A stretch of 64,000 nt of DNA from Candidatus Amesbacteria bacterium GW2011_GWB1_47_19 (lineage in GTDB: Bacteria; Patescibacteriota; Microgenomatia; CAZETR01; Amesbacteraceae), in NCBI GenBank assembly GCA_001002325.1, contig LCNZ01000001.1, forward strand, positions 67,773 to 131,772, in the 5' to 3' direction. Each line of letters opens with the position of its first letter. Positions within the stretch are counted from its first letter, which is position 1. The notes beneath the pieces were generated by a model, which was given only the letters and a program-made list of their open reading frames with translations, was not told where the DNA came from and made no database searches. A program made the translations under genes and the position numbers. This document shows positions 8,205 to 63,785 of this stretch, piece by piece.

Positions 8205-8355
8205 ATCTATTAAAATATGACCGAATATAATGCGAATATCAAGAAGGATTTGAGGTTGATCGTGGTAAAATCAAGCGTAATCGGCCAGATACCCAAGCAG
8301 TCTAAGGGGCTCGTCTGCAGAACGAGTATTCGCGGGTGCAAATCCCGCTCTGGCC

Positions 8356-41588: not shown

Positions 41589-42500
41589 TCAGACCTGAGA
41601 ACGGCGGCGACAACGGCGGGAGCAGCGGCGGCAACCGGGGGAAGGATGACGGCGGGAGCAATTAACGGAAGCTAAATTTTGAGATAAACTAGATACAGCA
41701 GCAGTGGCAGCTTGAGTATCATCTGAAGGCAAATTAATCTGAGGTATAAGGGTAGTGAGACGGGAATAAAATTGGTCAGGGGTAGCTTGAGGGTGAATAA
41801 GTTTCTCCACAAAGAGGACATTTGCGAGATTGTCTGAAGCTGAATCAGTGAGATGGATAGGTGAAACCACCGATGAGCGGATTGATTGACGCAACTCTTT
41901 GAGATTGGGATAAATAAAAGTGAGAGTATCGGCAAGGGGGGCAATAAGATTGGTTATTGACTGGGAGGGCAACACAAATTCCAAAGTTCTGGCCAAATCG
42001 GGCAGAGGAACGCTTTCAGGATTGGTAGCCACCCGGCGGTAAATAGTGGGCTCGACTACATCATTGAAAAATTCTGCCGCGACTTTGCCCTGAGGGCTAC
42101 GTTGAGCGACCGACCGACTGATCATTTCCAACTGGGATAGCATTTTGTCGTGGACCGTGGGGTTTTTGTGCCGGATTTTCTCCGCTTCCTGTTCCCGGAG
42201 CCTGAGGTGATTTTCATAATCATCAACTAAAGTCTTGAGAATGCCGTACATGGAGTCGATTTTTTCCTGAGAGAGTTCAAGCAGCGCCAGATTCAAAGCC
42301 AGCAGGGGTTCTTCATCTTTTTTAATTAATTTGAGTCTTTCAAAGGGGAGAATTTGTTCAACGACAGACCAGATTTTTATTTCCACGGAAGCAGGTGTTT
42401 CTCCTGGGGGAATTTCAGGAGGAATAAGAGATAGGCTGTAAATTAATTTCTGAAGACGGACCAGTTGCTGAGTCTTGGTTGAGGTATAGACGTCAGGCAT
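41589..42500 (-). CDS. T4SS-cluster protein, hypothetical (coiled-coil/low-complexity), translationally coupled to VirB4
   Basis: Its start overlaps the VirB4 stop by 8 nt. The last approximately 25 aa (CSRRHPSPGCRRCSRRCRRRSQV) look out of frame. The coding appears to continue in the 41171..41587 ORF and then into 37809..41249. Confidence 0.35.
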   Translation of the reverse strand: MPDVYTSTKTQQLVRLQKLIYSLSLIPPEIPPGETPASVEIKIWSVVEQILPFERLKLIKKDEEPLLALNLALLELSQEKIDSMYGILKTLVDDYENHLRLREQEAEKIRHKNPTVHDKMLSQLEMISRSVAQRSPQGKVAAEFFNDVVEPTIYRRVATNPESVPLPDLARTLEFVLPSQSITNLIAPLADTLTFIYPNLKELRQSIRSSVVSPIHLTDSASDNLANVLFVEKLIHPQATPDQFYSRLTTLIPQINLPSDDTQAATAAVSSLSQNLASVNCSRRHPSPGCRRCSRRCRRRSQV

Positions 42501-44331
42501 GAGGTTTCTCCTGGTCGGTAATTAACCGCATGGCGGCTGCTTTCTGGGCTAATAACTCCGAGGGTTTGGTAGTGACAAGCTGGTGTTCGTCGGGGGAGGC
42601 GACAAAGCGGACGGCAACATGGTTATTGCCGGCAAAAAACAGGCCTTCACCGACGTTGGCGGAGAGCAGAAGATGTTTTTCCCCCTCGGAAAGATAAAAA
42701 ACCTGGGCGATTCGATCAACAGCCGCGGGAGACTGCTTCATGAGGATCTGGATGGATGAATTGGTGACGATGGCTTTGCCAAAATCAGTATTTAAGAAAT
42801 CTTCCACATCCTGAGTAATGGTGGTTAATCCGAGGAAGTATTTACGGGCGCGTTTGGCAATTCCGTAGAGGAAATTGGCCGAATCGGGATAGCGCATGAG
42901 ATACCAGGCTTCGTCAACCACCAGGATCCTTTTTTTGAGATCGCGGCGCATCTTGGTCCAGATATAATCGAGAATAATAAAAATGGCAATAGGTTTGAGT
43001 GAATCTTCAAGGTCACGAACAGAAAAAACAGTGAAAGGATTTTTGAGAGCGACGTTACTGGGCTGATCAATAATGCCTGTAAAACTACCTTTGACGAATT
43101 TTTCCAGACGATCCGCCAGTGAAGCAGCCTGGGGTTCTTCCATACCTATGAAAGCCTTGTATAGATCCTCCATGAGGGGGGGGACTTTTCTCTGAGTGAC
43201 CGGATCGGTGGTGATGCCTTTCATACGGTAAGACAGATTTAATGCCCGGTCCAAAAGAGCTTCCTCAGTGGGGTTGAGGGCACCCATGATGACCTTGAAA
43301 AGCGAATGCAGTGACTGAATCTTGAGGTTGAGTTCATTTTCTTCGGAGGTGTCGGTGAGGGCAGATAAATCGAAGGGATTAATGCGGTTTTGGGAGTTGT
43401 AAGCAAAATTTATATAATCCCCACCAACCACGTCACACAGAGGCTTGTATTCGTTTTCGGGGTCGATAACAATTACTTCCGTGCCGAACATGAGAGAACG
43501 AAGAATTTCCAGTTTGATGGCGTAAGACTTGCCTGCCCCGGCCTTGGCAAAAACGACGGTGTTGGCGTTTTCCAATGTGAACCGGTCGAAAATAATCAGG
43601 CTGCCGTTGTGTTCATTAATTCCATAGAGAACCCCTTCGTTTGAGGTAAGCTCGGAAGAAGTAAACGGGAAAGTAGTGGCCAGAGAGGTGGTATCCATAT
43701 TGCGGGTGACCATAAGGTGGTCAATACAGGTCGGGAGGGTGGTTTTGAAACCCTCGCCCTGTTCCAGGACGGTGGGAATTGAAGAAAGCAGAAGTGAAGA
43801 CAGAGTACTGCTGACCTGCTTGCTGGTGGTTTCCAATTCCGATGCCGATTCGGCGGGGATGGTGACATAAAGCGAAAACTGAAAAAAGCGTTCGATACCT
43901 TTGACCAGCTGATCCTGGAGAGACAGGGCGTCTTCGAGCTTTGCCTGGGTACCGGGATCGACAACCCGACCACGCTGCATGTCAGTGCTGAGTTCGGCTT
44001 CCATTTCAGCGATTTTGCGGCGGAGGTCATCCAGGGTAGATTTGCTTTCCACGGGATAGACGAACATGGAAATATTAAGAGAATGATCAAAATTGATTAG
44101 CTGAGAGAGCCAGTTGGCATCCACAAACCGGCGGTTGATGGTGGTGAAAAAGGAACGGTAGTAATACTCATTTATTTTGAGAAGATTAAAATCTATCGAA
44201 ATTTGCTGGGGGGCGATAATGTCCTGAACTGTTTTGGCCAGGGACAGAGTTTTGGTAACAGGTCCGGAGGAAGGAGTGGGGGCAGGGTGGGTTACGGTAT
44301 CAGATGATGGTCTTTTTTTGAAAAGCGGCAT
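42493..44331 (-). CDS. type IV secretion system VirB4/TrbE/CagE-family ATPase, ATPase portion
   Basis: Walker A VVFAKAGAGKSYAIK, a Walker B-like ILVVDEAWYL, and the AAA-like/DUF87 layout typical of monoderm VirB4 proteins (PrgJ/TcpF-like). Confidence 0.8.
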   Translation of the reverse strand: MPLFKKRPSSDTVTHPAPTPSSGPVTKTLSLAKTVQDIIAPQQISIDFNLLKINEYYYRSFFTTINRRFVDANWLSQLINFDHSLNISMFVYPVESKSTLDDLRRKIAEMEAELSTDMQRGRVVDPGTQAKLEDALSLQDQLVKGIERFFQFSLYVTIPAESASELETTSKQVSSTLSSLLLSSIPTVLEQGEGFKTTLPTCIDHLMVTRNMDTTSLATTFPFTSSELTSNEGVLYGINEHNGSLIIFDRFTLENANTVVFAKAGAGKSYAIKLEILRSLMFGTEVIVIDPENEYKPLCDVVGGDYINFAYNSQNRINPFDLSALTDTSEENELNLKIQSLHSLFKVIMGALNPTEEALLDRALNLSYRMKGITTDPVTQRKVPPLMEDLYKAFIGMEEPQAASLADRLEKFVKGSFTGIIDQPSNVALKNPFTVFSVRDLEDSLKPIAIFIILDYIWTKMRRDLKKRILVVDEAWYLMRYPDSANFLYGIAKRARKYFLGLTTITQDVEDFLNTDFGKAIVTNSSIQILMKQSPAAVDRIAQVFYLSEGEKHLLLSANVGEGLFFAGNNHVAVRFVASPDEHQLVTTKPSELLAQKAAAMRLITDQEKPHA

Positions 44332-44332
44332 G

Positions 44333-44965
44333 TCAGGTTTCAGTGGGTTTTGGCAAAATAACTCTACTACCTAAAAGATCGGGATTGTAGTAGTCGAAAA
44401 ACAGCTGAAGAAGTTCCTGGGAATTGAGCTGGCGGGCCCGCAAGCCGATACGAGCCAGAAGACGGAGAAGATGATCGCGTTTTGGAGCCAGATTGGTGGC
44501 TGCGCGATCGAAAATGTCCGCTTTGGCCAGGGGCAAACCTTTTTTCCGGGGGCCGAGGGCGCCCATGGCGGAACTAAAACCCAATTCCATTGAGCTGAAA
44601 GGAATGGAAATAAAGAATTTTTTGTCCAATACATTACCCTGACGGACAATGGCTTTGATGAAATCCCGGTATTTGGTGAGCTGCGTACGGATTTTGGGGG
44701 CAGAAGTTTTGGCCAGACGCTCTTCCAGTTTCTGCAGGTAATCGGATATATCCTTACGTTTGGAAGAAATAACTATCTGGATGGAAAAAGTCAGAGAATT
44801 TAAAAGTTGGGCGTAGGCATACATGGTGGCTTCCTGCTCTTTTTCGGAAAAAAGCCCGAAGTTGATGGCGCCGACCTCGAGAATCAGGCAGGCGGAACCG
44901 TCTTTTAATAAGACCAGATCGTTCTGAATATCTTCAATGTCCAGATGATCACGGGTAAGGTTCAT
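44333..44965 (-). CDS. VirB4-like N-terminal domain (separate ORF)
   Basis: LVLLKDGSACLILEVGAINFGLFSEKEQEATMYAYAQLLNSL resembles the VirB4/TrbE N-terminal region. It ends 2 nt before the ATPase ORF begins, in a different frame. Confidence 0.55.
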   Translation of the reverse strand: MNLTRDHLDIEDIQNDLVLLKDGSACLILEVGAINFGLFSEKEQEATMYAYAQLLNSLTFSIQIVISSKRKDISDYLQKLEERLAKTSAPKIRTQLTKYRDFIKAIVRQGNVLDKKFFISIPFSSMELGFSSAMGALGPRKKGLPLAKADIFDRAATNLAPKRDHLLRLLARIGLRARQLNSQELLQLFFDYYNPDLLGSRVILPKPTET

Positions 44966-44983: not shown

Positions 44984-46039
44984 TCAGGCATTTTGGGGTT
45001 GGGCAGTGATAACGATGGGTGGGATAAGGGAATTGGCGACTTTGATGGAAACAGGGGGAAAATTGAAACCGTCTTTTTCGGAATTGATGACGTATGAGCC
45101 GGAGGGGAGGGGAATGGCAATCTGGAATTGGCCGAGACGATTGGTACGCAGAGCCCGGGCAGGGATGCCCGTCTGAGAATCGAGAATTTCCAGGGTGACA
45201 CCGGACATGGGTGAACCGGCGGAATCGTTGATCTGGCCGGAAAGAATATTCGGTTGGGTGGGAGCAGTGACAGCGGAAGTGAGTGTGGCCTGAGGTGCGG
45301 GGGGAGGGGGAGTGATAGTAGGCCGGGGGCCGGGTCCGGTCAGGGGAATATTGGGAAGAGGAGGCAGGGGCGAAACCACGGAGGAGGCGGAAGGGGCAGC
45401 TTTGGCTGGAAGAGGGGAGATAACCGGTTCCGGGACAGCAGCTTCGGCCGGGGCAGTGACCGGTGAGATTTGGGGCGGAGGGGTAAATGCGTGATATGCG
45501 GTTTGGGTGGGGGAATCCGGGGTGGCGGGACTTTGAACCCGGGCGGTACCGGGGAAGGTGGACGGAAGAGTGACCGGAGTCGGGGCAGTCGGGAACGGAG
45601 ATTCGGCGGGAGGGGGAGAAATAACGGGGGATGGTTCGGGCGCTGGTTCGGGGGCGAGGGAGGTGACAAATGAAGTGAAACTAGTAGCGGGAGATAGTGG
45701 GGCAGCAGGTGGAGGGGCGGCCGGAATTCGGGGAACAGTTTTAGTTGAAGGGGGGGAAGGGGCCCAGACAAATTCCGTGGGTGAATAAATAGCTTTCATA
45801 AAAGCGGAAATCCATTTGGCGAAAGGCCGGCCATTGATGGGAAGAAAGGCCATCGCAGCACCCATGACGGCGCAAATAAAGACAGCGGGGTATTTGATGA
45901 TGACCGGCAAGGGGGTGCGGAAGATCAGAAAGGCCATGACCAGGCCACCAGCCAAGTAGAGAAACTGCTTAAGGGTCATGTCCCCGACCAGGCGGAATTC
46001 GTAAGAAGAAATGTTTTGCGGGACAGGATGTTGTTCCAT
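44984..46039 (-). CDS. VirB3-like two-TM protein with Pro/Ala-rich linker and C-terminal Ig-like (CarboxypepD_reg-like) domain
   Basis: N-terminus has two adjacent hydrophobic helices (LYLAGGLVMAFLIF / AVFICAVMGAAMAFLPI) and sits directly upstream of VirB4, as in monoderm T4SS. C-terminus SGQINDSAGSPMSGVTLEILD...GSYVINSEKDGF. Confidence 0.45.
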   Translation of the reverse strand: MEQHPVPQNISSYEFRLVGDMTLKQFLYLAGGLVMAFLIFRTPLPVIIKYPAVFICAVMGAAMAFLPINGRPFAKWISAFMKAIYSPTEFVWAPSPPSTKTVPRIPAAPPPAAPLSPATSFTSFVTSLAPEPAPEPSPVISPPPAESPFPTAPTPVTLPSTFPGTARVQSPATPDSPTQTAYHAFTPPPQISPVTAPAEAAVPEPVISPLPAKAAPSASSVVSPLPPLPNIPLTGPGPRPTITPPPPAPQATLTSAVTAPTQPNILSGQINDSAGSPMSGVTLEILDSQTGIPARALRTNRLGQFQIAIPLPSGSYVINSEKDGFNFPPVSIKVANSLIPPIVITAQPQNA

Positions 46040-46214: not shown

Positions 46215-48623
46215 ATGAGTGACGATATGAGCCAAGAAATACCAAAAGGGATTGTGCCCGGGGGGCAGGTAAAGAGTGAAAAAAAGGATATCGTCGGCAA
46301 ACCCGAATCAGGGAGGTCATTGAGGGATGAACTCAAGGGACAAGATGCAAACGCAATAGTTCGAGAGAGTACAGGTCCGCTTGGAAGTAGAGAGACACCT
46401 CTTGGAGAAAATCGGGGCAGCTGGCGTGAACAGGAACAAAAGAAAAGGGGACCAGGTGTGTTGTTGACAGAAAAACTTAAAGAAGAGCCAAAGGAGGCTG
46501 AGCCAGAAGATACCAGCTTGGGAAGAAGGCTGGAAAATGTGCTGGTGGGGATGCTTGCAACGGCTCAAGCGTTTGATGAGGCAGGGGAGTTGGTGAGAGC
46601 AATAACAAGGAAACGAGAAAGCGGAGAGCCTGTAACCCATGCAGACCAAATTAGACCTGAACTGGCAAAATTATATAAAAAGTTAGCCGGATCAAGAGGG
46701 GCCAGGCAACATGCCGATATGGAGACTGAGGATTTGGTTAGGAATGAATTGCTGAGCGGGGTGCGGCCATTTCAGGAGATTCAAGACGACATTAGAGAGG
46801 CGTTTAAAATATCAGACCCACAGGAAAGGGAAAAACGGATTAAAGAGTTGCGTAAGGAAAGGGCTCCACTGGAGATGATTGCAGAAGGTATAGGGCTATT
46901 TGATGATGTGCGAAACGATACAAAAACAGAGCAAGACTGGCGGTTTTTTGAAAATGCCGGAGGGAATCTTCAGGACCATTCGGAGATTGCGCCAGAAAAC
47001 GATAAACTCTCTCGCAGCTTTCTGAATAATAGAATCACGGAAGTGAGAGGATTGCACGGTTACGATCCCAAAATGGACGGAATGATAGAGGAATACCGGG
47101 AGGTGGCGAAGGAGAATTGGGCTTGGGCGATGAGAGCTGCAAGGGGGGAAGCAACTATTGATGCCGATACTAGGAAAAGAGTTGAGGCGAGGGGGTGGGG
47201 GACGATTCCCCAAACAAGCCTGGTGGAAGAGGCGAGAGGGTGGTTAGAGAAGGTGAGGGGAGTTAACGAGAGGCAGGCGAGGGAGCAGCAAATGGAACAC
47301 GAGCGTCTATTAGCCGAAAAGATGGGGCAAGGTGCGGGGGGAGGGGGGGGAGCAGAAGTTGAAGTTAGAGAGGTTAATGCCAGCGGGGACAGGTGGAGCG
47401 CCAGGTTTATGGAAAAACTGGGACTACCTGTGAATTTTGTGATACCACCACAAGGGCCCAGGGCTCCGGAAATCAGGGTGGAAACGGCTTCTGCACTGGA
47501 GAATGCCTATGATACAAATGGAGTTCCCGTATTTATAAACCCGAATACTGTTGAAGGACAGTATTTCATAATGTCCTGTTCAAGCCAGGAGAAGGCTAGG
47601 CTGTTTTATTGGGGAGTGTTGCCGTGGATAAGATTAATAACTTTGGGCAGGCACGACGGGAAATTTTCAACTTTGTATGATCCGAAAACCGGGAGTGGTT
47701 TGATAGGAGAGCTAGGATTGTCCTTAAGGGGTTTGGCAACTGCTTTTGAAAATGATGAGGAGGCAAAGAGATGCCTGGCGATTATTCTACAAATGAATGA
47801 GCAGGAATATCCTGGCGGAGGAGGGAGAAGAGTACTTGATGGCCGCAGAACCATGAATACTGATGATGTGCATTTTGCGGAGAGTAAAGCTCCGGAATAC
47901 ATGCGGTTGCTTAGGAGCGACCCCTTAAGGGAAGAATACGGACATACGGCGGTGAGAAACGAAATAAGAGATTTGGCGGCAGAAGTAGCGAAGTACGTGG
48001 GATGTGACAACGGTACCGCGGAAATAATGATGGAAGTAGCAACATTGATCAATGGGGGGCCGAAAATGGTTGAATACAGGAATATCCTGAAAAATCACGG
48101 AGAACTTTTGAGTGCCTATGCTGGTGAAAGAGCAGCTTTACCTCTATTGGCGAAGCTATTTATGGGAAAAAATGCCGGAGGGGATTCGGTTTATCTGGCG
48201 GATTATTTCAATAATCAGGGAGTCGACGGAATGTTTCAACAAATGAAGGGAATGTATGAAGACCGATGGCACAAAGCAATCGGCGGGATGGTGACAATTA
48301 AGTCGGTGATAGATTCGATACAGAAGATGTTGAGATGGGATGGTGATGCCAAGGAAATGGCTTCAAAATACGTGGTAAAATGTGAAATAGTTAAATTGCT
48401 AGCGAGTTTGAGAAAACTGGAATTTCCTTTAATCGAAAGGGGTACTGAGGCTGAGATTATTGGGCGGGCTAATGATATGCCTGATAAAATCGGCGAGGTG
48501 GTAAAGGAGTCATCACCTCCTGCCGAACAAGTGGCTAATGAGGTGGGCTGGGGATTATTGAATTCATTAACATTCGGAGGTGCCGGACTGCTTAGGTCAA
48601 TCAGGAGAAAAAGGGGAAGTTAG
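46215..48623 (+). CDS. large soluble hypothetical protein inside the T4SS locus (candidate substrate/effector)
   Basis: 802 aa with no TM and no recognised catalytic motif, a charged N-terminal region, and a C-terminus ending LLRSIRRKRGS (Arg-rich). Confidence 0.4.
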   Translation: MSDDMSQEIPKGIVPGGQVKSEKKDIVGKPESGRSLRDELKGQDANAIVRESTGPLGSRETPLGENRGSWREQEQKKRGPGVLLTEKLKEEPKEAEPEDTSLGRRLENVLVGMLATAQAFDEAGELVRAITRKRESGEPVTHADQIRPELAKLYKKLAGSRGARQHADMETEDLVRNELLSGVRPFQEIQDDIREAFKISDPQEREKRIKELRKERAPLEMIAEGIGLFDDVRNDTKTEQDWRFFENAGGNLQDHSEIAPENDKLSRSFLNNRITEVRGLHGYDPKMDGMIEEYREVAKENWAWAMRAARGEATIDADTRKRVEARGWGTIPQTSLVEEARGWLEKVRGVNERQAREQQMEHERLLAEKMGQGAGGGGGAEVEVREVNASGDRWSARFMEKLGLPVNFVIPPQGPRAPEIRVETASALENAYDTNGVPVFINPNTVEGQYFIMSCSSQEKARLFYWGVLPWIRLITLGRHDGKFSTLYDPKTGSGLIGELGLSLRGLATAFENDEEAKRCLAIILQMNEQEYPGGGGRRVLDGRRTMNTDDVHFAESKAPEYMRLLRSDPLREEYGHTAVRNEIRDLAAEVAKYVGCDNGTAEIMMEVATLINGGPKMVEYRNILKNHGELLSAYAGERAALPLLAKLFMGKNAGGDSVYLADYFNNQGVDGMFQQMKGMYEDRWHKAIGGMVTIKSVIDSIQKMLRWDGDAKEMASKYVVKCEIVKLLASLRKLEFPLIERGTEAEIIGRANDMPDKIGEVVKESSPPAEQVANEVGWGLLNSLTFGGAGLLRSIRRKRGS

Positions 48624-48632
48624 AATTTAGTT

Positions 48633-50258
48633 TCACGAGCCGGCTTTTTTACCCCAACCGGAGATTGTATTAGAGAAGCTTCTCGCGGCTTTGGCAGCCG
48701 ATTCCAGGGAGGACGCGGCTTGTTTGTCAGCCGGTAAACCTCCTGCTCCAATTTGACCCGCGGCATACTCAAGCGATGAGGCACCTAAACCAACACCTTT
48801 AGAGGGAAGGAGAAAGGCGGGGCCGAGGGCTTGGCCAATGGCTGTGCCGTATTTGAATTGCGGAGCTTTGAGGGCGTCGCGGACCATTTCAGCCGCTTTG
48901 GGAATAAGAGCAAGAATGGCGTAACCCATGACGAAAGAAAAAAGGAAACCGACTGTACCGACAAAAGGCAGAGAAGGCCAGCCCGAAGTAGTCAGGCCGG
49001 TATTTACGGTACAGCCGAGTGGGGTGAGGCGCCATGTTGTACCGGAAAAAGCGGCGAGAATAGCATCGATAATTGTCCGAATGGGAGCAGGAAACGGAAT
49101 TAGGGAACAAAGAGGTTGCCAAAAAAGCATATTCAGAAGCAGCATGAGGGGGACGACAACAAAGACAGCGGCATTGGCAATTAAATTTCTGAACCAGGCG
49201 CCGAATCCCTGGTTGCCGGGAAGAAGCCCGAGCATAATCTGCCAGGGACCGACAATAATAAGAAACATCAAGGTGAGGTAAGTCTTAAGAAGCATCCAGA
49301 AGACGCGCAACAGCAGCCAACTGATGAGGACGATGAGGACGATGCTGATGAGCGTAAGAACGGGAAGGATAAAGTTTAGGAGAGGAATGAAGATGGAAAA
49401 GCCGCCTGCTGCACTAACGAGGATAAATGGAAGCATATAGTATGCAAGGACAACTGCGAAGCCACCGGTGGCAAAAAAGCGGATAGAACTACCCATAAAG
49501 GCTGCCCCAAAAACTCCACTGTAGCTTAAAGCCCCCAACACCAGGGTGATGATCACAAAAATGGAATCCAGGACCAGACCGGCAATTGCGTAGGAGAAAG
49601 TGACTAAAAGCAAAGTAATAATAATTTTGGGTATCATGAGCTGAACGGAGATGGCAGTCTGGGGATTGATCTTGACCCGGAACATGATCATGAATGCGGC
49701 GGCGACAAGGATGACAATCATGAGCAGATAGACGATATTCCTGGAGGTAGCCCAGAGCCGATTGATAGCTGATAGGCTGGTGAAACCATATCCCTGGGCG
49801 TGGGCAGGGGAAGCTATGGAGAATTTGGCCAGGCTATTGCTGATATCTTCAATGCCGGAAGCGGGAAGATTGGTATAAATTCCTGATATTCCAGCCATAG
49901 CCAAACCCGGTATGCCAAGAGCGGCATAATTTTGTAGGGAGGGGGATTCCTGAGATAAAAGTTGCCGGAGAAAATCAATGATTTCACTTGACTCGTCCAG
50001 TCCGGCCGTAGGGTTGAGGATGAGATATAGACTGTCCAGGATCCAGACCACCTGGGCATAGGTGTAACGTTCTCCAAAAATGGCGTCCTGTGGATCCGCG
50101 GTAACTTTCTGGCCGAACTCTTCGGGGGAGGGGTTATACCAGGGAGTGGCAGCGGCGGCGTGCGGAGTGAACGTTGAGAGTAATAGCGTAAAAGAATACA
50201 AGAGGACTAGAAATGTGAAAGATGCCTTTTTTATGAAAGAGGACATGTGGTTATACAT
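48633..50258 (-). CDS. VirB6/TrbL-like polytopic membrane protein
   Basis: Signal-peptide-like N-terminus, an approximately 150-aa periplasmic-like region, at least 6 TM helices and a Gly/Ala-rich C-terminal tail. It sits in the T4SS cluster. Confidence 0.5.
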   Translation of the reverse strand: MYNHMSSFIKKASFTFLVLLYSFTLLLSTFTPHAAAATPWYNPSPEEFGQKVTADPQDAIFGERYTYAQVVWILDSLYLILNPTAGLDESSEIIDFLRQLLSQESPSLQNYAALGIPGLAMAGISGIYTNLPASGIEDISNSLAKFSIASPAHAQGYGFTSLSAINRLWATSRNIVYLLMIVILVAAAFMIMFRVKINPQTAISVQLMIPKIIITLLLVTFSYAIAGLVLDSIFVIITLVLGALSYSGVFGAAFMGSSIRFFATGGFAVVLAYYMLPFILVSAAGGFSIFIPLLNFILPVLTLISIVLIVLISWLLLRVFWMLLKTYLTLMFLIIVGPWQIMLGLLPGNQGFGAWFRNLIANAAVFVVVPLMLLLNMLFWQPLCSLIPFPAPIRTIIDAILAAFSGTTWRLTPLGCTVNTGLTTSGWPSLPFVGTVGFLFSFVMGYAILALIPKAAEMVRDALKAPQFKYGTAIGQALGPAFLLPSKGVGLGASSLEYAAGQIGAGGLPADKQAASSLESAAKAARSFSNTISGWGKKAGS

Positions 50259-50285: not shown

Positions 50286-53180
50286 TCAGGGGGCGGGGAA
50301 AGGGCAGCTGCTAATATAATCCCAGGTTGTATTGGTAATATTTTGGGCATACTCATCGGTATCTGCCGTGGGAATACATTTATTTAAGTTTGTATTGTAA
50401 CTAAATTTTGCAGCAAAGACACGAGCCCAGCCGTATTGAATAATTTCAGCGGAACAGGTGGACTTGATTTGTTTAACGAAGTTGATAAAGGCGGTGATCT
50501 GGGCAAGCCAGTTATTATGAGGATAAAAGACCATGCCAAAATCGGAGACGTTTCCGATTTTTAAATAGTTACTGGTATCGCTTTCATTCATCCAAATTAA
50601 TAAAACCAGGGCGGGATTGACTCCGGCCTGATTGGACAGAAAGACTGCATCATTGAAACACTCTTCGGCATAGGGGTACCCTTGGGTGGGAAGGCCGTAC
50701 CAGCGGCGGGCAACGTCGATATAATTTGCGCGGTTGACACAGGCGACAGCTTGAAGAGGGCGGGACTTGTTGCAGTTGATGCCCTTGGTACCGATGGGCG
50801 GGGAGTAGGCGTCGATGATGTCCAATGGACGCCAAAGACGTTGGAAGTTAAGATTTTCGTAAGAAACGGCTCCTCCGAGAAAATGATCAGCCAGACTGCC
50901 GAGGCGGTCAAAGTAAATATCTGCCGGGGCACCACCGGAACCGGAATCCACACGGGGATTGTTGAGATTTGAGGTGCTGCCCGAGTATTGGGCAGTATCC
51001 TGTCCGGGGACGGTAGTTTCGATATCGTGTTCTCCGGTCAGGTAATCGGCACCGGGCCCCAAAATATCCGGTTTCTTGGGTAGGAAACGGCGAAGAAGGG
51101 AATCGGCACCAACAACCAGGGAGTCATAAAGGCGTTCGACCAGAGGCGTTTTAATAAAAACTGAAATGCGGGTATTTGAATTCAACTCCCGACGCGGCCA
51201 GGCTTCACACTTGCCGGGCTCTTCGTCCTGCCATTCGCAAAGGCCGGCTCCGGGGTAAGGGTAATTTTCACAAGCGGATTTGCCGAAAGTCTTGCAGATG
51301 GGGTAGGGACCATAACAGCCCCCCGGCTGATAACCCTGGCATTCACCCCAGCAGCAGATGCGATCCGGGGTGCAACCAGCATTTTCCACGGCGCAGGGCA
51401 GGGGAAAGTCTACCAAATGCTCGGGAGTATATTGGAATACCTGGTGGTAGGTGAGCGTGCTGCCGATGGATGACCCAACCAGATTGTCGCCGGGGCTGGA
51501 CCGGGCATCAGAAAGTTCGCAGGAGGGGGGATCCGGTCTGAACAATGGATTGGGAGCAAGAGCACCGGGGATGACCTCGGTGTTGCGGGTCGGCAGGCCG
51601 CTTTTGAGGTAGTCCGGACGCTGGACGACTGTGGAATCATCGATGCCCTGATGCTCGGAAATGCGTTGGGAAACAAAATCACGGCTGGAGGTATCCGGCA
51701 CACGGGTTGGAGTAGGGGGGAGGGGGAGATAAAAACTTCGACTGATTTCCGTCAGGGCATTACTGGACTTGAGCCCAGGGAAGTAGAGTCGGGAATCGGA
51801 AAGTTCACCGGCATTATCGATTATCAGGGAGGGATTGCGTCCGGGACAACTATTGATCAGGTAACCATCGGAATCAGGTTGGAAAGAAACATCCGGAATG
51901 AAACTAATGGTGCTCTCGCCGGTAACATCTTCACGAGAGGAGTAGGGAACCTGGTACATCATGGCGGAATTAAGGCTAACGCCGTTCAAGCGGACAACCT
52001 TGGCTCCCGGTCCGCCACAATTGACTACTTCATCTAGAATTAAAGCCGAGAGGCAGGTGCGGAGGTTTTGAATGGGCTGGAAGCCAATTTTTAGAAAATC
52101 CTGAACAAATTGGCCATCATTACCGAGGACTGTTAATCCTTCGCGGATGAGGGCTGCCGCAAGGGAGGCAGGTGAGGCGAAATCGGCTTGGGTAATGTGG
52201 GGTATAGCCTGAATAACCTGAATCAGATCCTGGGCTACCATACGGGCGGCAAGGTAGGCTAAACGGGGAAGGGTGAGCAGATTGGAGGCTGCGGCTTTGA
52301 GACAAGTGAGAACGGCGTTGACTATTTGGGCTACGGTGCGGCTTTCGCGGCAGCCGACGATGTAATTGTGATATTGTTTTTCAACGGGGCCGTTTAAAAG
52401 AGCAGTGCGCAGATCCAGCTGCGAGTCCCTGGGTAGAAGCTTATTGACCGGGCCGGAATAAGTATTAAGGCGGACCATTTCGTTCGGGTTATCAGGATTT
52501 AAGGGAATGTGCTCCGAACTTTGGACAGTGCCGCTCAGATACCAGTCGAGGAAGAGGTTGACCTGGACTTCATCGTCCAGATCCTCCTGAGTATTGCTGA
52601 TGATGGGGAACTTGGAGTTTTCCAGACCGACGTTAGTATGCCAGGTGACGGGATGGACCAGACAAACTTGGCCACCACAGAGATAATAATTTTGATAAGC
52701 GAAGGTATCACCGTTGGAATTTTCCAGGTCGGCCGTACAGGGATTGAAAGACTGGCCGATTAGATTTCTGGGAACGACATCAAGGACGGTATAGGAACCG
52801 TGGGTGTTGAGGCTGTTGGCACAGGAAAAAGTGAGGTATTTGTTATCGGCGGCGGCAGGAGCCTCGGGAGTTTTGCGGGGGATGAGAGGATCGCAGGGAG
52901 ATGCGGGATAGGGGCGAAGGGGGTGGAATTCCGGAGAGACGGTCTGGGGGCAATTGGTGATGTTGGTGATATATTTGAGGGGGGTGAAACCAAAGGTGAC
53001 GGGGTCACGGGGAACGGAAAATGTGGGTGTTTGGGCGTGGATAGGAGAGTTAAAGAGCAGAAGAGCGGAAGAGAACAAGAGTGTAAGATTTATTAATATC
53101 CGACGAACCATAAGCATATTATACATATGAAGTGTCCAGCGTCCGAAGTTTGGGGGAATTAGCAGCCGGAGATGATACAA
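50286..53180 (-). CDS. large secreted Cys-rich protein, possible C-terminal cell-wall hydrolase (SLT-like ES motif)
   Basis: Signal peptide (LTLLFSSALLLFNSPIHAQ), a Cys-rich module (CCWGECQGYQPGGCYGPYPICK...), and a C-terminal region with LLIWMNESDTSNY, a possible lytic-transglycosylase E-S motif. The true start is probably an internal Met. Confidence 0.4.
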   Translation of the reverse strand: MYHLRLLIPPNFGRWTLHMYNMLMVRRILINLTLLFSSALLLFNSPIHAQTPTFSVPRDPVTFGFTPLKYITNITNCPQTVSPEFHPLRPYPASPCDPLIPRKTPEAPAAADNKYLTFSCANSLNTHGSYTVLDVVPRNLIGQSFNPCTADLENSNGDTFAYQNYYLCGGQVCLVHPVTWHTNVGLENSKFPIISNTQEDLDDEVQVNLFLDWYLSGTVQSSEHIPLNPDNPNEMVRLNTYSGPVNKLLPRDSQLDLRTALLNGPVEKQYHNYIVGCRESRTVAQIVNAVLTCLKAAASNLLTLPRLAYLAARMVAQDLIQVIQAIPHITQADFASPASLAAALIREGLTVLGNDGQFVQDFLKIGFQPIQNLRTCLSALILDEVVNCGGPGAKVVRLNGVSLNSAMMYQVPYSSREDVTGESTISFIPDVSFQPDSDGYLINSCPGRNPSLIIDNAGELSDSRLYFPGLKSSNALTEISRSFYLPLPPTPTRVPDTSSRDFVSQRISEHQGIDDSTVVQRPDYLKSGLPTRNTEVIPGALAPNPLFRPDPPSCELSDARSSPGDNLVGSSIGSTLTYHQVFQYTPEHLVDFPLPCAVENAGCTPDRICCWGECQGYQPGGCYGPYPICKTFGKSACENYPYPGAGLCEWQDEEPGKCEAWPRRELNSNTRISVFIKTPLVERLYDSLVVGADSLLRRFLPKKPDILGPGADYLTGEHDIETTVPGQDTAQYSGSTSNLNNPRVDSGSGGAPADIYFDRLGSLADHFLGGAVSYENLNFQRLWRPLDIIDAYSPPIGTKGINCNKSRPLQAVACVNRANYIDVARRWYGLPTQGYPYAEECFNDAVFLSNQAGVNPALVLLIWMNESDTSNYLKIGNVSDFGMVFYPHNNWLAQITAFINFVKQIKSTCSAEIIQYGWARVFAAKFSYNTNLNKCIPTADTDEYAQNITNTTWDYISSCPFPAP

Positions 53181-53530
53181 ATGGAAAAATTTGTAAAATT
53201 AACGCCCAGAAATTTTCCGGCGAGGCTAAGGATTATCCAGGCGGAAAGCGATACCATCAAACCCAACACGGAATAAGTGATGGTGGATTGGGCACGGGCA
53301 GCGGATTCCTTGTTAGCTCCAGCCGATAGAAACTGGAAACCGCCGATGATCAACATGATCAGGGAGGCGGTTGCGACAAGAGTGAGAAGGGAAGCGAGGA
53401 CCCGACTGAAAACCGTTTCCAGTCCGGTGATTCGGGCGGGAGGGGCAGGGGTAGCGGCGGAAACCTGAGGCACATAGAGTATAAGAGTGGAAGAGTAGAA
53501 GAGTAGAAGTTTTAATTTGGCTTTGGACAT
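53159..53530 (-). CDS. T4SS pilin-like protein (VirB2/TrbC topology), paralog 1
   Basis: Signal peptide, hydrophobic helix 1, a short polar loop (SAGANKESAARAQ) and hydrophobic helix 2. It is a paralog of the eight downstream genes. Confidence 0.55.
   Translation of the reverse strand: MSKAKLKLLLFYSSTLILYVPQVSAATPAPPARITGLETVFSRVLASLLTLVATASLIMLIIGGFQFLSAGANKESAARAQSTITYSVLGLMVSLSAWIILSLAGKFLGVNFTNFSICIISGC
53470..53515. repeat. purine-rich 8-mer repeat (AGTAGAAG)n encoding the pilin paralog 1 signal peptide
   Basis: tataagagtggaagagtagaagagtagaagttttaatttggc. The reverse complement encodes MSKAKLKLLLFYSSTLIL. Confidence 0.75.
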
Positions 53531-53594
53531 ACGAATATATTAGCACAAAAATCACCCCCGGAATCCGGGGGTGATTTCGCCTAACGCCAGGCTT

Positions 53595-53978
53595 TTAGAT
53601 GTTGTTCAGGTTGAGACTGATAACATCGACGTTAAAGAGGACGCGGATGATGTAAAGAAGGGCGTAGGCCGAGAAAACCACAGCCAAGCCGATAAGGGCG
53701 TTGGTGATTTTTTTCCTGGCCTTTTCCGTACCTTCCTTGTCACCTCCGGCGAGAATCCACTGAATACCTCCCCACAAAAGGAAGATAAATGCGGCAATAC
53801 CGGCTGCGCCCAAGAGAATATTGATGGCTGCCGTGACGTACCTGGTAGGAGTGATATTGGCGATATACGGGTACTTGGTTGAGTTGATGGAGACGTTTTC
53901 TCCGGTGACGGCCAATACACGGCCAGGAAGAGCGGCAGCTCCGGTCAGTACGAGAGCTACTTTTTGTGTTTTACTCAT
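53595..53978 (-). CDS. T4SS pilin-like protein, paralog 2
   Basis: LLGAAGIAAFIFLLWGGIQWILAGGDKEGTEKARKKITNALIGLAVVFSAYALLYII is a two-helix hairpin with the conserved AGGDK loop. Confidence 0.6.
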   Translation of the reverse strand: MSKTQKVALVLTGAAALPGRVLAVTGENVSINSTKYPYIANITPTRYVTAAINILLGAAGIAAFIFLLWGGIQWILAGGDKEGTEKARKKITNALIGLAVVFSAYALLYIIRVLFNVDVISLNLNNI

Positions 53979-54047
53979 GCATTACGTCACCACCTTTCGA
54001 GTTGTGGGTTGAGTTTACCATATCTGACGGTTTGAGGAAATCCGAAT

Positions 54048-54437
54048 TCAAATGGTGTTAAGGTTGACGTAGAAGGAGTTTATGTTGAATAAAATCCGAA
54101 CAATGGTGATAAGTGCGTAGGAAGAAAGGACAATGGACAAGCCTACCAAAGCGTGGAGGATGCGTTTGCGGGCCCGCTCAATGCCTTCTTTATCTCCCCC
54201 GGACATGATCCACTGAATACCTCCAACAAGAAGGTAGATAAAGGCAATGATACCGGCGGCACCAAGAAACAGATTAATCCCTGAGGTAACCAGACGCCGG
54301 GGAGTAATGGTGTAGAGTTTGTTGTAGGGAGAGGCGGGATCAATGAGATTGACGTCGGCAGCGGAAGCATGAGAGGAGAAGAGTGTAAGACTAGATGAGT
54401 ATAAGAGAATTAGCGTGTGGAGGAATCTTTTCTTCAT
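54048..54437 (-). CDS. T4SS pilin-like protein, paralog 3
   Basis: LGAAGIIAFIYLLVGGIQWIMSGGDKEGIERARKRILHALVGLSIVLSSYALITIV is about 70% identical to paralog 2 over the core. Confidence 0.6.
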   Translation of the reverse strand: MKKRFLHTLILLYSSSLTLFSSHASAADVNLIDPASPYNKLYTITPRRLVTSGINLFLGAAGIIAFIYLLVGGIQWIMSGGDKEGIERARKRILHALVGLSIVLSSYALITIVRILFNINSFYVNLNTI

Positions 54438-54438
54438 A

Positions 54439-54792
54439 TCAGGGGGCGGGAATGTTAAACTTGCGGATATCGACTCCGAATAGCACTTCTACTACGTAGA
54501 GAAAAGCAAAGGCGGAAAATACGATAATAATTCCAATAAAGGCGTTGGTAAGGCGTTTTTGGGCTTTCTGAACAGCCTCTTTATCACCTCCGGCATTTAT
54601 GTATTCATAACCACCACGCAGGAGCATGATAAAAAAGTAAACACCGGCGAAACCAAAGGCGACATTGATCAGATTCCTGAGCATAAGTGAAAGAGCAGCG
54701 CGGCTATTTAAGGTGGTTGAATTGCCTAATTTTCCGTTAAGGGGGGGGTTGTAGAGGCTCTGTGCGAGTAGGGAGAGGACAGGCATAATCAT
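54439..54792 (-). CDS. T4SS pilin-like protein, paralog 4
   Basis: FGFAGVYFFIMLLRGGYEYINAGGDKEAVQKAQKRLTNAFIGIIIVFSAF. Confidence 0.6.
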   Translation of the reverse strand: MIMPVLSLLAQSLYNPPLNGKLGNSTTLNSRAALSLMLRNLINVAFGFAGVYFFIMLLRGGYEYINAGGDKEAVQKAQKRLTNAFIGIIIVFSAFAFLYVVEVLFGVDIRKFNIPAP

Positions 54793-55226
54793 GGTCTTAA
54801 ACCCAGAAGTAAAAAGCCGAATCTGAGGATGGGTATACCCAGGAAATACCCGATTACCCCGGTAATGGTAAAAGCCATTACAACGACGAGTAAACCCATA
54901 AAGGCGTTTGTAAGTCGTTTTTGGGCGTCCTGTACTGCCTGTTTGTCGCCTCCGGCATTAATCCACTTATAGCCAGCCATAAAAATCTGAAACAGGAAGT
55001 ATACTCCGGCAATTACTGTCATGAGACCAATGATGTTGGATATAAAATTTGTAAGCTGAGTGGCAGTCTGGGAGGAGGGGGTATTGGGATTGCCCAAAGG
55101 ACCAATGCCGTTGATGGTCCCCAAGTTGATACTGGAAGCAAGTAGTTTGGTGTAAAGGGTGGTCATTTCAAGGGCCCCAGATTCTGGGACGGAACAGAAT
55201 ATAAGCGTTGGTAGGACCGAAGACAA
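54789..55226 (-). CDS. T4SS pilin-like protein, paralog 5
   Basis: VIAGVYFLFQIFMAGYKWINAGGDKQAVQDAQKRLTNAFMGLLVVVMAF. The true start is probably the internal Met at about 55166, 2 nt from the end of paralog 6. Confidence 0.55.
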   Translation of the reverse strand: MSSVLPTLIFCSVPESGALEMTTLYTKLLASSINLGTINGIGPLGNPNTPSSQTATQLTNFISNIIGLMTVIAGVYFLFQIFMAGYKWINAGGDKQAVQDAQKRLTNAFMGLLVVVMAFTITGVIGYFLGIPILRFGFLLLGLRP

Positions 55227-55518
55227 TATATCCTATAGCCCAAGCTATGAGGAATGAAGCGGCAATGATAACCAATCCGAGAACCGACTGCCAGATTTTT
55301 TCCCAAGCCCTGGCGATATTTTTGGGTTCGCTGCCGGCGGTTAAAAAACCCCAGCCGGCCATGATGATATTGAAAAAAGCATAGACGCCTGCAAGGACAA
55401 TCATAAGCTTGACGAGATTGCTGACAAGAACAATAAGCCCCTGGCCTTGGGCGCCGGTATATCTTCCGGGCGAAAGAACTGAAAAAGGGCTGTTAATGCT
55501 GCCAAAGATGCCAAACAT
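55168..55518 (-). CDS. T4SS pilin-like protein, paralog 6
   Basis: LAGVYAFFNIIMAGWGFLTAGSEPKNIARAWEKIWQSVLGLVIIAASFLIAW is a divergent copy. Confidence 0.5.
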   Translation of the reverse strand: MFGIFGSINSPFSVLSPGRYTGAQGQGLIVLVSNLVKLMIVLAGVYAFFNIIMAGWGFLTAGSEPKNIARAWEKIWQSVLGLVIIAASFLIAWAIGYIVFGPTNAYILFRPRIWGP

Positions 55519-55522
55519 ATGA

Positions 55523-55882
55523 TCAGGTGACGGGTGGATTCATGAAATTAATTCCGGTAACTACTGTCAGTATCTGAAGTATAAAATATGAGGCGATGAC
55601 TAGCAAGAAGCCGAATAGAGCCGAGTTCAAAATACCGCGTTTTTTTGCCAATTCACGGGCATCATCCGGACTACCTCTCTGGAAACGGCCGGACATGACA
55701 ATCATGTTGAAGCCATAATAGATGATAATCAGGAAAAAGATGACAGCGGCGATGACCATGATATTGGGGAGGAGAGTGGAGATTAATGAACCGGGGGTAG
55801 CGGCGACATTTTTTGCTCCGGGGTGAGGTCCGAAAAATGTTCCCGGGATATTGACAACAGCAATGGGGGGAGAAGTGTTCAT
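55523..55882 (-). CDS. T4SS pilin-like protein, paralog 7
   Basis: VIAAVIFFLIIIYYGFNMIVMSG...ARELAKKRGILNSALFGFLLVIASYFIL is a divergent copy with the same two-helix layout. Confidence 0.5.
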   Translation of the reverse strand: MNTSPPIAVVNIPGTFFGPHPGAKNVAATPGSLISTLLPNIMVIAAVIFFLIIIYYGFNMIVMSGRFQRGSPDDARELAKKRGILNSALFGFLLVIASYFILQILTVVTGINFMNPPVT

Positions 55883-56184
55883 AGAAATAGAATACCAAAT
55901 ACGAAACGGATAACTTGGCCGAGGAAATAAGCACTTAATACAAGCAGCAGGCCGATTAAGGCGTTGAGCATGGTTTTTTGGGAGGCCTGGACCTTGCCGG
56001 GATCACCCAGTGCAGTGAGTGAAGTAAAGGCGGCAATTATAAAGCGGATCAGAAAATAGAAACCGGCGATAGCGATGGCATATAACAGGATGCGGGAAGT
56101 GAGTGTACCCACGAAAGTTACAGAGCTACGGAAGATGGTGGAAGGGCCGGGGATGCCGGAAATCTGGGCAATGGGAGGCTGCAT
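55879..56184 (-). CDS. T4SS pilin-like protein, paralog 8
   Basis: AIAGFYFLIRFIIAAFTSLTALGDPGKVQASQKTMLNALIGLLLVLSAYFL. Confidence 0.55.
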   Translation of the reverse strand: MQPPIAQISGIPGPSTIFRSSVTFVGTLTSRILLYAIAIAGFYFLIRFIIAAFTSLTALGDPGKVQASQKTMLNALIGLLLVLSAYFLGQVIRFVFGILFL

Positions 56185-56190
56185 ATTTGA

Positions 56191-56715
56191 TTAAGGATTA
56201 AAGCCTAATCCTCCAAGGCCGAGGATCTGGACGCCGATAAAATTTAGGATAACAACAGCCATGACGATCAGGGCCAGGGCACCCAGTACATTGACGATTA
56301 TTTCCTGACCAGCCTTGATGCGTTTGGGGTCACCGGCGGCAGTGGCCATAAGAAAACCAGCGTAGACAATGAAAATGAAGGCAATACCACCTCCAACGCC
56401 TACTGCCCAGCGGATGATCTGGTCAATCAGAAGTTTCGGATTTGAAGTTTGGAGACAACCGAGGGCGGTTTTGATGCCTGAATTAGAGTTGGTGGGATTA
56501 CAAAAGCGCGGGTCATTTATGGGGGAGGACCCACTATTTTTGCAACATTTCCACAAAGCAGGACATGTTCCGGCAAGGCTGCCATACCAGCACCTCATAC
56601 CTATTAGTGCGCAGTGACCCCCAGCTTCTTCACAGGTGGCTGCACGGGAGAGGGAGGGAAGGAAGAGAGAAATAAAAATTAAAGAGGCGAGAGAAAGGAT
56701 GAGTTTAGCGGACAT
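56191..56715 (-). CDS. T4SS pilin-like protein with N-terminal Cys-rich extension, paralog 9 (first gene of array)
   Basis: Signal peptide, a Cys-rich segment (CEEAGGHCALIGMRCWYGSLAGTCPALWKCC), then the pilin-like core GGIAFIFIVYAGFLMATAAGDPKRIKAGQEIIVNVLGALALIVMAV. Confidence 0.5.
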   Translation of the reverse strand: MSAKLILSLASLIFISLFLPSLSRAATCEEAGGHCALIGMRCWYGSLAGTCPALWKCCKNSGSSPINDPRFCNPTNSNSGIKTALGCLQTSNPKLLIDQIIRWAVGVGGGIAFIFIVYAGFLMATAAGDPKRIKAGQEIIVNVLGALALIVMAVVILNFIGVQILGLGGLGFNP

Positions 56716-56769
56716 GGATCAAATTGAGTTTAGCATAGAGTGGAATACATTTGTTAGAATTTTAAAGCG

Positions 56770-63412: not shown

Positions 63413-63785
63413 TGGTGGAGATGGGGGGAGTTGAACCCCCGTCTGAAATGGTCTGAAAATCCGGTTGTACAAGCTTTTTGTCCGATGAAGGACGGTTTGC
63501 AGTTAGTGGTCTTGGCTGAAGCGAGTCTAACTACAGTACTGCTGCAGCGCACCCCGATTGGTTTTCGCCTTGATAATGCAGTCGGGGAAGCAAAATTAAG
63601 ACGCTCTTCGTTCCAGCTTAAGCGAATGCGTACGCAGAACGAGAGATGAAAGGATTGATCTTGGCGACCAATTCTCCCACACGTGCTTTTAAGTCAGCAC
63701 TTTAGGTTGAACCTGATTTACGAGTAGTGTTCGAACTCGGCTTGCCGAATTTAAAGGTGCCAATTCATCGATGCCCGGCATCCCC
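63413..63785 (-). ncRNA. ssrA: tmRNA (ssrA)
   Basis: The minus-strand 5' end GGGGAUG pairs with the 3' CAUCUCC-ACCA end, giving a 7-bp acceptor stem with G3:U70. The T-arm is GGGGGUUCAACUCCCCCC. An internal ORF-like frame GCC AAG AUC ... GCA UUC GCU UAA gives a tag ending AYAFA*. Found by eye, not by a tmRNA scanner. Confidence 0.7.

Follow-up and report, generated by a model that had tools for sequence, protein, structure and literature searches.

Introduction

Patescibacteria account for a large part of bacterial diversity and are dependent on host cells. Tandem arrays of VirB2-like genes, associated with type IV secretion systems (T4SSs), were surveyed in 3,035 Patescibacteria genomes with the profiles PF04956 and PF18895 (Quinonero-Coronel et al., 2025; Microb Genom 11:001409, PMC12102498). 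With an array defined as at least two pilin-profile genes in tandem or with at most one other gene between them, 441 arrays of 2-11 genes each were found, especially in Microgenomatia. Identity within arrays had a mean of 25% and a maximum of 54%, the T4SS was often near dnaA/dnaN, relaxases were absent, and VirB6 was described as 'scarce' in Microgenomatia. By analogy with Bartonella and Anaplasma, it was suggested that array diversity may aid adaptation to different hosts. Here, a 64,000-nt stretch of contig LCNZ01000001.1 from Candidatus Amesbacteria bacterium GW2011_GWB1_47_19 (the window) was analyzed, with a focus on nine consecutive genes for two-helix pilin-like proteins.

The predicted T4SS pilins of Ca. 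Southlakia epibionticum (SEML1_0006-0019 region) were found to be essential by transposon sequencing (Tn-seq) (Wang et al., 2023; Cell, PMC10633639). A 2025 review gave six genes for the Southlakia array and noted the possibility of a pilus in a monoderm. Monoderm (Gram-positive-type) T4SSs otherwise have no VirB2/VirB5 pilins (PMC12102498; 2025 review).

The locus type is already described, and the array in the window is an instance of this known phenomenon: like the published arrays, it is tandem, divergent and near virB4 and dnaA/dnaN, with no relaxase. We are highly confident that it represents the PF18895 'pilin' array of a chromosomal, origin-proximal T4SS of Candidatus Amesbacteria (Microgenomates, Patescibacteria/Candidate Phyla Radiation, CPR). 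What is added here is evidence that the paralogues are old, keep a fixed order and are expressed together as parts of one structure, among which p2 (as named below) is a probable major subunit and p9 a probable tip subunit. For this explanation as a whole, array identity together with co-assembled, non-redundant subunits, we estimate a probability of about 60%.

Results

Nine tandem genes assigned to the T4SS_pilin family

The list of open reading frames (ORFs) for 52-58 kb showed nine consecutive ORFs on the minus strand (53159-56715), encoding proteins of 101-174 aa; they were designated p9 to p1 from the first to the last array gene (Table 1). An earlier sequence-only reading of this DNA had described nine consecutive paralogous genes here, which was confirmed by the ORF list and by BLASTP. 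The p2/p3 pair matched at E=3e-39, and each gene was linked to several others at E<1e-4; p8 matched p2, p4, p5 and p7 at E 1e-10 to 1e-14 (p8/p7 1e-10), and p6 matched p5 at 1e-16. Local pairwise identity among the nine proteins had a mean of 32%, a minimum of 22% and a maximum of 58%. The p2/p3 core, previously put at about 70% identity, does belong to the closest pair, but the measured values were 66% over a 70-aa core (46/70) and 58% over 95 aa.

In a Pfam scan, all nine proteins matched PF18895 (T4SS_pilin), and six of them (p1, p2, p3, p4, p5 and p9) scored above its gathering cut-off of 26.6 bits. The three below it, p8, p6 and p7, were tied to other paralogues by BLASTP (E 1e-7 to 1e-16). 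PF18895 was the best or near-best Pfam match for every protein, and membership of all nine in this family is established. A search with p2 returned 275 homologues at E<=1e-3, and a profile of the nine paralogues returned 87,377 cluster representatives at the same threshold. Among the NCBIfam models, the best one for eight of the nine was the Mbov_0395-family pilin-like conjugal transfer protein (NF045849), with 17-26 bits against a cut-off of 40.

In a hydropathy scan, every one of the nine proteins showed two hydrophobic segments with a net-positive loop between them. Residues 46-77 and 81-115 of p2 were modeled as helices by AF2, with a pLDDT of about 90. A regex search of the nine proteins for the G/(F,M)-T-L-(I,L)-E motif of class III prepilins returned nothing, and a type IV prepilin identity was rejected. 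The two-helix layout of VirB2/TrbC topology, proposed from the letters alone, was thus borne out by hydropathy, loop charge and regex, and two of its details needed correction. A signal peptide had been assigned to all nine proteins; by eye, a signal-peptide-like N-terminus (basic n-region, hydrophobic core, A-x-A) was present only in p9, p3, p2 and p1, and the N-termini of p8-p4 are too short to hold one. The proposed A-G-G-D-K loop consensus holds for p2-p5, but the other five loops differ, reading GDP(K/G), AGANK or AGSEP or being longer.

From p9 to p1, the intergenic gaps were 6, -4, 4, 1, -4, 1, 69 and 64 nt. The seven genes p9-p3 are likely co-expressed because they overlap or sit 1-6 nt apart. 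The suggestion of one operon would fit this tightly packed group; p2 and p1 are set apart by the larger gaps. For p5, an alternative 145-aa ORF starting at a TTG reaches 55226 and overlaps p6. The ATG at 55166 is most likely the true start, and gene callers gave 125 aa for p5 in public contigs of identical sequence.

Putative expression signals of p2 and the cysteine-rich module of p9

Within the 64 kb, the exact 14-mer TATG[GC]TAAACTCAA has only two occurrences, one before p9 and one before p2 (Table 1), and is a putative promoter for both. TATAAT/TATACT-like boxes were present at the equivalent place before p2 orthologues in other species. A further copy with two mismatches (AATGCTAAACTTAA; 34027-34040, minus strand) was observed in the dnaA-yidC intergenic region, which suggests that the 14-mer may be a general -10-type promoter element of this organism.

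Only p2 is preceded by a strong Shine-Dalgarno-like site, and the other eight array genes have none. One of GGAGGTGA, AAGGAGGTG or AAAGGTGGTGA was present before the p2 orthologue in 8 of 11 loci examined. The hairpin after p2 was recovered by a repeat search and folding, with -30.6 kcal/mol for the p2-p1 intergenic fold; a scan for consensus sigma-70 promoters and terminators gave nothing convincing and missed this hairpin, the arms of which are 1 nt apart. GC-rich hairpins also follow the p2 orthologue in L006, L008, L009, L010, L011, L013, L021, L022, L023 and L024. The whole arrangement of gap, -10-like box, GGAGGTGA site, gene and GC-rich hairpin was seen around p2 orthologues in most Amesbacteria loci. 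Three transcription units are predicted from these patterns, namely p9-p3, p2 alone, and p1, which is probably co-transcribed with the two genes downstream. Because p2 has its own promoter-like box, a strong ribosome-binding site and a terminator-like hairpin, it may be the abundant major subunit. The p2 orthologues showed a mean identity of 57% (range 46-69%), the highest mean among the orthogroups present in most loci.

The sequence-only reading had also pointed out an extra Cys-rich N-terminal module in the promoter-proximal copy, and p9 does carry one. In all p9 orthologues (position 1; 15/18 loci), the hairpin was preceded by a signal peptide and a Cys-rich module that varied widely in length (4-30 Cys), and some p2-like copies showed Cys-rich C-terminal tails. 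Disulfide-rich modules at the N- or the C-terminus agree with a topology in which both termini face outward and the basic loop lies inside.

Fused multi-hairpin proteins

The top scorers of the nine-paralogue profile were single polypeptides with 2-17 tandem hairpins. Tandem T4SS_pilin hairpins numbering 6, 8, 11 and 16-17 were seen in P0128, P0129, P0145 and P0185 and in loci L050 (10001-15328) and L051 (9925-12387). An 820-aa, 8-unit protein is encoded in a CPR-like genome, where two more pilin genes and then a gene for a PKD-repeat protein follow. A 1775-aa, 16-17-unit protein is encoded on an archaeal-looking contig (ribosomal L39e, Cas4) and matched both PF04956 and PF18895. A cluster look-up for the fused proteins returned no names. 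Fusion of the hairpin units is classical evidence for their joint action.

The fusions also raise the possibility that the hairpins stay in the membrane. In such a reading, they would not be extruded but would form a fixed hetero-oligomeric bundle or ring in the cytoplasmic membrane as part of the T4SS channel, and 'pilin' would be a misnomer. Polypeptides of 6, 8 and 16-17 tandem hairpins would indeed be polytopic membrane proteins, and the five array proteins without a signal peptide, the lack of significant similarity to pilus-forming VirB2, and the general lack of VirB2/VirB5 pilins in monoderm T4SSs point in the same direction. However, the expression signals of p2 fit a subunit needed in large excess, and disulfide-rich modules on the outer termini fit display at the surface. 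Some homologues elsewhere, P0145 among them, carry both PF18895 and PF04956 matches, which tie the family to true pilins. Moreover, the bundle and the pilus are compatible models, since classical VirB2 is also membrane-resident before assembly. We consider a permanent membrane bundle unlikely.

Orthology and collinearity among related loci

The relatives were scanned with one genome per species, giving 36 related loci (Amesbacteria, Gottesmanbacteria, Beckwithbacteria, Roizmanbacteria and further Patescibacteria). With the nine-paralogue profile, 33 of the 36 showed 5-13 copies within the flanks, with one locus each at 13, 12 and 11. Nine genes, which do exceed the single pilin of classical systems as the sequence-only reading had stressed, are the norm here, and this number is typical of the lineage. 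Amesbacteria contig L012 (188-4979) showed 13 tandem pilin-like genes and is truncated at its start; this number is above the 11 genes of the largest published array, and the probable reason is that divergent copies score under the Pfam thresholds. PF18895-type pilin-like genes were also observed in metagenome-assembled genome (MAG) records titled 'uncultured Gammaproteobacteria', 'uncultured Pseudomonadales' or 'Candidatus Bathyarchaeia archaeon' (L009-L011, L013, L018, L020, L021, L023, L028, L030, L032, L034, L037, L039 and L040). Most of these records hold Microgenomates-type arrays, with 1-2 copies only in L030 and L040, and such titles are probably placeholder or erroneous taxonomy.

Orthologues were compared among 18 Amesbacteria-like loci. 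The best match of each gene of the window was located at the equivalent position of the other loci; reciprocal best hits were obtained in 138 of 161 cases, and adjacent reciprocal pairs were collinear in 120 of 120. Orthologues (mean identities 42-57%) were more alike than paralogues (mean identities 28-44%), and protein-level conservation across species was 40-69%, with lengths kept. Reciprocal-best orthologues were found in 15 of the 18 loci for p9, 16 for p8, 17 for p7, 16 for p6, 17 for p5, 17 for p4, 5 for p3 and 18 for p1, the last always at the final array position. In its five loci, the p3 orthologue had a mean identity of 56%. The extra genes of larger arrays sit in the p2/p3 zone, and copy-number change is confined to the p2/p3 type.

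At the DNA level, the paralogues share an 81-nt loop-coding stretch at 60-80% identity, and a repeat search among them returned no longer repeated segment. Over 20.4 kb, the window was 100% identical to DNMO01000003.1 (GCA_003488165.1) and to metagenome contigs of JGI and ENA, with groundwater contigs among the identical public sequences; p9 was identical to a protein of Candidatus Amesbacteria bacterium GW2011_GWB1_47_19. When five contigs, each of a different sample, were compared with the window, they differed by 0-5 bases over 7-20 kb, with one single-nucleotide polymorphism inside the array.

These data bear on the role proposed for the VirB2 paralogues of Bartonella and Anaplasma and suggested for Patescibacteria (PMC12102498), in which the copies would be alternatives to one another, with only one or a few pilins in use at any moment, and their diversity would serve host range or evasion of host or phage recognition. 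Such a role would suit the low identity within arrays (mean 32% here, 25% in the survey), the change in copy number from 5 to 13 between species, the extra copies being mostly of the p2/p3 type with p3 orthologues in 5/18 loci, and the hypervariable N-module of p9. However, eight of the nine genes have positional orthologues in 15-18 of 18 species and are fully collinear, which is the reverse of what rapid turnover would give. Joint expression is implied by the overlapping start and stop codons, and use at the same time by the fused multi-hairpin proteins; no repeats able to drive switching were detected, and arrays from five independent samples were virtually identical. We therefore judge alternative pilins to be quite improbable. 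The sequence-only reading had offered antigenic variation, a reservoir for recombination and a heteropolymeric filament as explanations of the copy number; the first two are disfavored because of the collinear orthogroups, the overlapping genes, the absence of DNA repeats and the near-absence of population variation, and the third is the one favored by the evidence.

Small membrane proteins unrelated to secretion (holin-like), or ORFs that are not coding at all, are very improbable and effectively refuted: short hydrophobic ORFs do draw weak, spurious Pfam matches such as UNC-50 and DUF898, but PF18895 leads or nearly leads for all nine, the orthologues are conserved in sequence and length, the array profile recruits tens of thousands of cluster representatives, and the linkage to adjoining T4SS genes is kept. 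The outcome by which the sequence-only reading would have been refuted, a profile assignment to an unrelated family with no T4SS association, did not occur, given the PF18895 matches and the neighboring VirB4 and PrgI/VirB3. A reservoir of silent cassettes recombining into an expression site, in the style of Neisseria pilS to pilE, has only the tandem arrangement of related genes in its favor and a negligible chance of being right, because all copies are complete ORFs, each with a start codon, gene order and content stay stable from species to species and from sample to sample, and paralogues that share no long DNA repeat leave a recombination-based system without a substrate.

Genomic neighborhood and T4SS genes

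The features of the array and of the T4SS cluster are collected in Table 1.

Table 1. Positions of the array genes, their putative signals and the T4SS and replication genes nearby
Feature	Position	Strand	Description
p9	56191..56715	-	174 aa; array gene 1; signal peptide, 8-Cys extracytoplasmic N-module and hairpin; GDPKR loop; PF18895 36.3 bits
p8	55879..56184	-	101 aa; hairpin, no signal peptide; 4-nt overlap with p7; PF18895 24.4 bits
p7	55523..55882	-	119 aa; most divergent hairpin; loop ~8 residues longer (RFQRGSPDDAREL); no signal peptide; PF18895 16.4 bits
p6	55168..55518	-	116 aa; hairpin, no signal peptide; PF18895 21.0 bits
p5	54789..55166	-	125 aa from ATG 55166; hairpin, no signal peptide; PF18895 34.1 bits
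p4	54439..54792	-	117 aa; hairpin, no signal peptide; AGGDKE loop; PF18895 37.0 bits
p3	54048..54437	-	129 aa; signal peptide and hairpin; lineage-restricted duplicate of p2 type; PF18895 28.3 bits
p2	53595..53978	-	127 aa; signal peptide and hairpin; candidate major subunit; PF18895 39.9 bits (best of nine)
p1	53159..53530	-	123 aa; signal peptide and hairpin; last array gene; preceded by TGTGCTAATAT; PF18895 29.1 bits
Promoter-like box TATGGTAAACTCAA	54009..54022	-	extended -10-like TGgTAAACT; in the 69-nt gap upstream of p2
Second copy of promoter-like 14-mer (TATGCTAAACTCAA)	56724..56737	-	8 nt upstream of p9 ATG; in the 54-nt divergent spacer with the SpoIID-domain gene
Shine-Dalgarno-like AAAGGTGGTGA	53987..53997	-	8 nt before p2 ATG
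Intrinsic-terminator-like hairpin	53549..53577	-	after p2; perfect 14-bp stem (inverted repeat I2, 100% complementary), then TTTTTGTG
Secreted protein	50286..53126	-	946 aa, 28 Cys; directly 3' of array; no family match
Polytopic membrane protein	48633..50258	-	541 aa, ~8 hydrophobic helices; candidate highly divergent VirB6
PrgI-family (VirB3-like) protein	44984..46039	-	C-terminal CarboxypepD_reg-like domain; PF12666 37.1 bits, cut-off 27
TrsD-like / VirB4 N-terminal-domain-like protein	44333..44965	-	PF26593 TraC-like (precomputed); NCBIfam TrsD 26.7 bits and VirB4 N-terminal, sub-threshold
VirB4-like T4SS ATPase	42493..44331	-	NF045971 conju_CD1110 367 bits, cut-off 325; PF19044 109 bits
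dnaA	34553-35965
dnaN	36186-37313

The VirB4, PrgI and TrsD-like genes lie 7-11 kb downstream of the array. By its CD1110-type VirB4 and its PrgI/VirB3, the T4SS is classed as MPF_FATA (MPF, mating-pair formation), the monoderm conjugation type. The dnaN, dnaA, yidC and jag genes are located directly beyond the cluster, which is therefore chromosomal and next to replication genes. Pfam scans of the large ORFs of the window returned no relaxase or coupling protein (T4CP) family. In the related loci, a SpoIID-domain gene was divergent upstream of the array, and PrgI, TrsD and VirB4 followed wherever the flank reached that far.

The 946-aa secreted protein has a dense Cys cluster at about residues 560-640, similar in style to the N-module of p9, and its homologue directly follows the array in 16 of the 36 related loci. 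The 541-aa membrane protein is kept downstream of the array in 25 of 36. Its 849 homologues include none with a Pfam domain, and searches of Pfam, NCBIfam and PDB sequences with the protein itself returned no match. It was modeled by AF2 with a pLDDT of 76.6, and the top three hits of a PDB-wide Foldseek search were the TrwJ/VirB5-TrwI/VirB6 stalk chains of R388. Ti VirB6 and VirB5 were searched against PDB sequences to tell these stalk chains apart, with no match. The structural similarity is suggestive only, but makes the 541-aa protein a candidate for the 'missing' VirB6 of Microgenomatia, which is presumably 'scarce' there because of divergence.

Several other features of the window were recorded. 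An 802-aa soluble, charged protein with no family match is encoded on the plus strand in the middle of the T4SS cluster (46215-48623) and is kept in 1 of the 36 loci. A 1146-aa protein (37809-41249, minus strand) directly follows dnaN and shows a long N-terminal part rich in Ser, Ala and Leu, clustered hydrophobic helices, about 10 consecutive Gly and a C-terminal HLHMEV; an M23-type wall hydrolase, to which this motif might point, is not claimed, since Pfam and NCBIfam gave it no support. GC skew on the plus strand was positive in every 2-kb bin (0.04-0.45), with no sign change at dnaA/dnaN (34.5-37.3 kb), and the origin may not be at the dnaA gene or the skew here may not be driven by replication. 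A free-standing LAGLIDADG homing-endonuclease-like ORF (7485-8204, minus strand) adjoins the only tRNA gene of the window, tRNA-Cys (8283-8357, plus strand). A transfer-messenger RNA gene (63413-63785, minus strand) scored 85.6 bits, and an SmpB gene was called in the identical contig L001, at a distance of 2.1-2.5 kb from that end of the locus which corresponds to about 64 kb in the window.

Discussion

The co-assembly reading may be set out as follows. The nine proteins would be non-redundant subunits that are made together and are not interchangeable variants. Both termini would lie outside the cell and the loop in the cytoplasm; p9, p3, p2 and p1 would enter the membrane via Sec with cleavage of the signal peptide, and p8-p4 would insert as hairpins without one. 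The T4SS, with its VirB4 ATPase and a VirB6-like platform, may then assemble all nine into a single structure at the surface, which could be a short pilus or a conduit across the wall. In this structure p2 would be the abundant major subunit, p9 would act as a tip or adhesin subunit that exposes its fast-evolving, disulfide-rich module, and p4-p8 and p1 would be low-abundance minor, initiation or base subunits, a layout that would parallel the major and minor pilins of type IV pili. If the essential array of Southlakia epibionticum is taken as an analogy, this structure is probably used for the host-dependent (epibiotic) way of life, not for conjugation. The division into major and minor subunits is put forward tentatively, at somewhat less than even odds.

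Several observations weigh against this proposal. PF04956 (TrbC/VirB2) matched weakly, and only for p2 (15.1 bits) and p3 (16.0 bits), against a gathering cut-off of 27.9 bits. In hhalign comparisons with an alignment of eight annotated MPF_T VirB2/TrbC genes from plasmids, Ti-plasmid VirB2 and relatives included, the probability was 2.5-4% and P was 0.01-0.02, with the helix-loop-helix aligned in register, and fold searches with the hairpin model gave generic helical hairpins only. By none of these methods was the similarity to experimentally characterized VirB2 significant; homology of the array proteins to classical VirB2 is plausible, not demonstrated. Extrusion of single subunits into a filament is difficult to square with chains of up to 17 fused hairpins unless these are processed. 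The putative promoters, Shine-Dalgarno site and terminator are patterns in the DNA only, and were not picked up by the consensus promoter scan. The Foldseek match of the 541-aa protein to the VirB5/VirB6 stalk was weak (E 0.25-0.95, prob 0.96-0.75, target TM 0.43-0.45, chains of 260-268 residues). No pilus or other structure has been observed for the family, the assembly of which is thus a prediction, and the Tn-seq essentiality (PMC10633639) comes from another class, Saccharimonadia.

A stricter form of the proposal can be stated: the nine hairpins may be obligate partners in a fixed heteromeric T4SS conduit, with abundant p2, a Cys-rich p9 tip, six or seven minor subunits and a divergent VirB6 platform. 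We hold this form to be rather doubtful. If true, it would represent the first case of a VirB2-type pilus built from several kinds of subunit, as well as the first such pilus in a monoderm, and the gene-fused versions, with 2-17 hairpins per chain and present also in an archaeon, would represent its covalently linked form. The T4SS of Patescibacteria, including the pilin array, was essential in the one species tested. The present locus represents no new kind of system, but it sharpens the question: paralogues that appear to be ancient, co-expressed and set in a fixed order call for study of the array as a single machine of several subunits instead of a collection of antigenic variants, and this changes which experiments are informative.

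Comparison with known systems

Classical VirB2/TrbC proteins (A. tumefaciens VirB2, RP4 TrbC) and the array proteins are alike in small size, two hydrophobic helices, a short loop and both ends outside; a signal peptide is found in some array copies, and both kinds of locus encode VirB3 and VirB4. In contrast, the loop of the array proteins is 7-8 residues longer and strongly basic, and five of the nine have no signal peptide. The classical pilins are encoded by a single gene in Gram-negative MPF_T systems, whereas the array consists of nine genes in a monoderm host.

The VirB2 paralogues of Bartonella (Trw) and Anaplasma phagocytophilum resemble the array in having several tandem, divergent VirB2-type genes per T4SS locus. 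Variation of surface properties or antigens is the presumed role of those copies, whereas the array consists of ancient orthogroups in fixed order, with no repeat-driven variation. The gene sets of type IV pili and of the type II secretion pseudopilus provide a functional analogy only, a major subunit with co-transcribed minor subunits, one of which has an outer domain. Their fold and family are unrelated, the array proteins lack the G/FTLIE motif, and Pfam scans of the window ORFs returned no PilD, PilB or PilC gene. The Mbov_0395 family (NF045849) of Mycoplasma integrative and conjugative elements also belongs to monoderms (Mollicutes), and the VirB4 family of these elements also matches this locus; they are mobile and hold one copy, whereas the array has nine copies, and its matches to that model are below the cut-off.

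From the published Patescibacteria arrays, nothing essential differs. The 2025 survey (PMC12102498) mentions neither conserved positional orthology nor fused multi-hairpin polyproteins, and reports no separate p2 transcription unit. The maximum pairwise identity found here, 58%, is slightly above the published maximum of 54%, and the relative L012, with up to 13 copies by the array profile, is above the published upper bound of 11.

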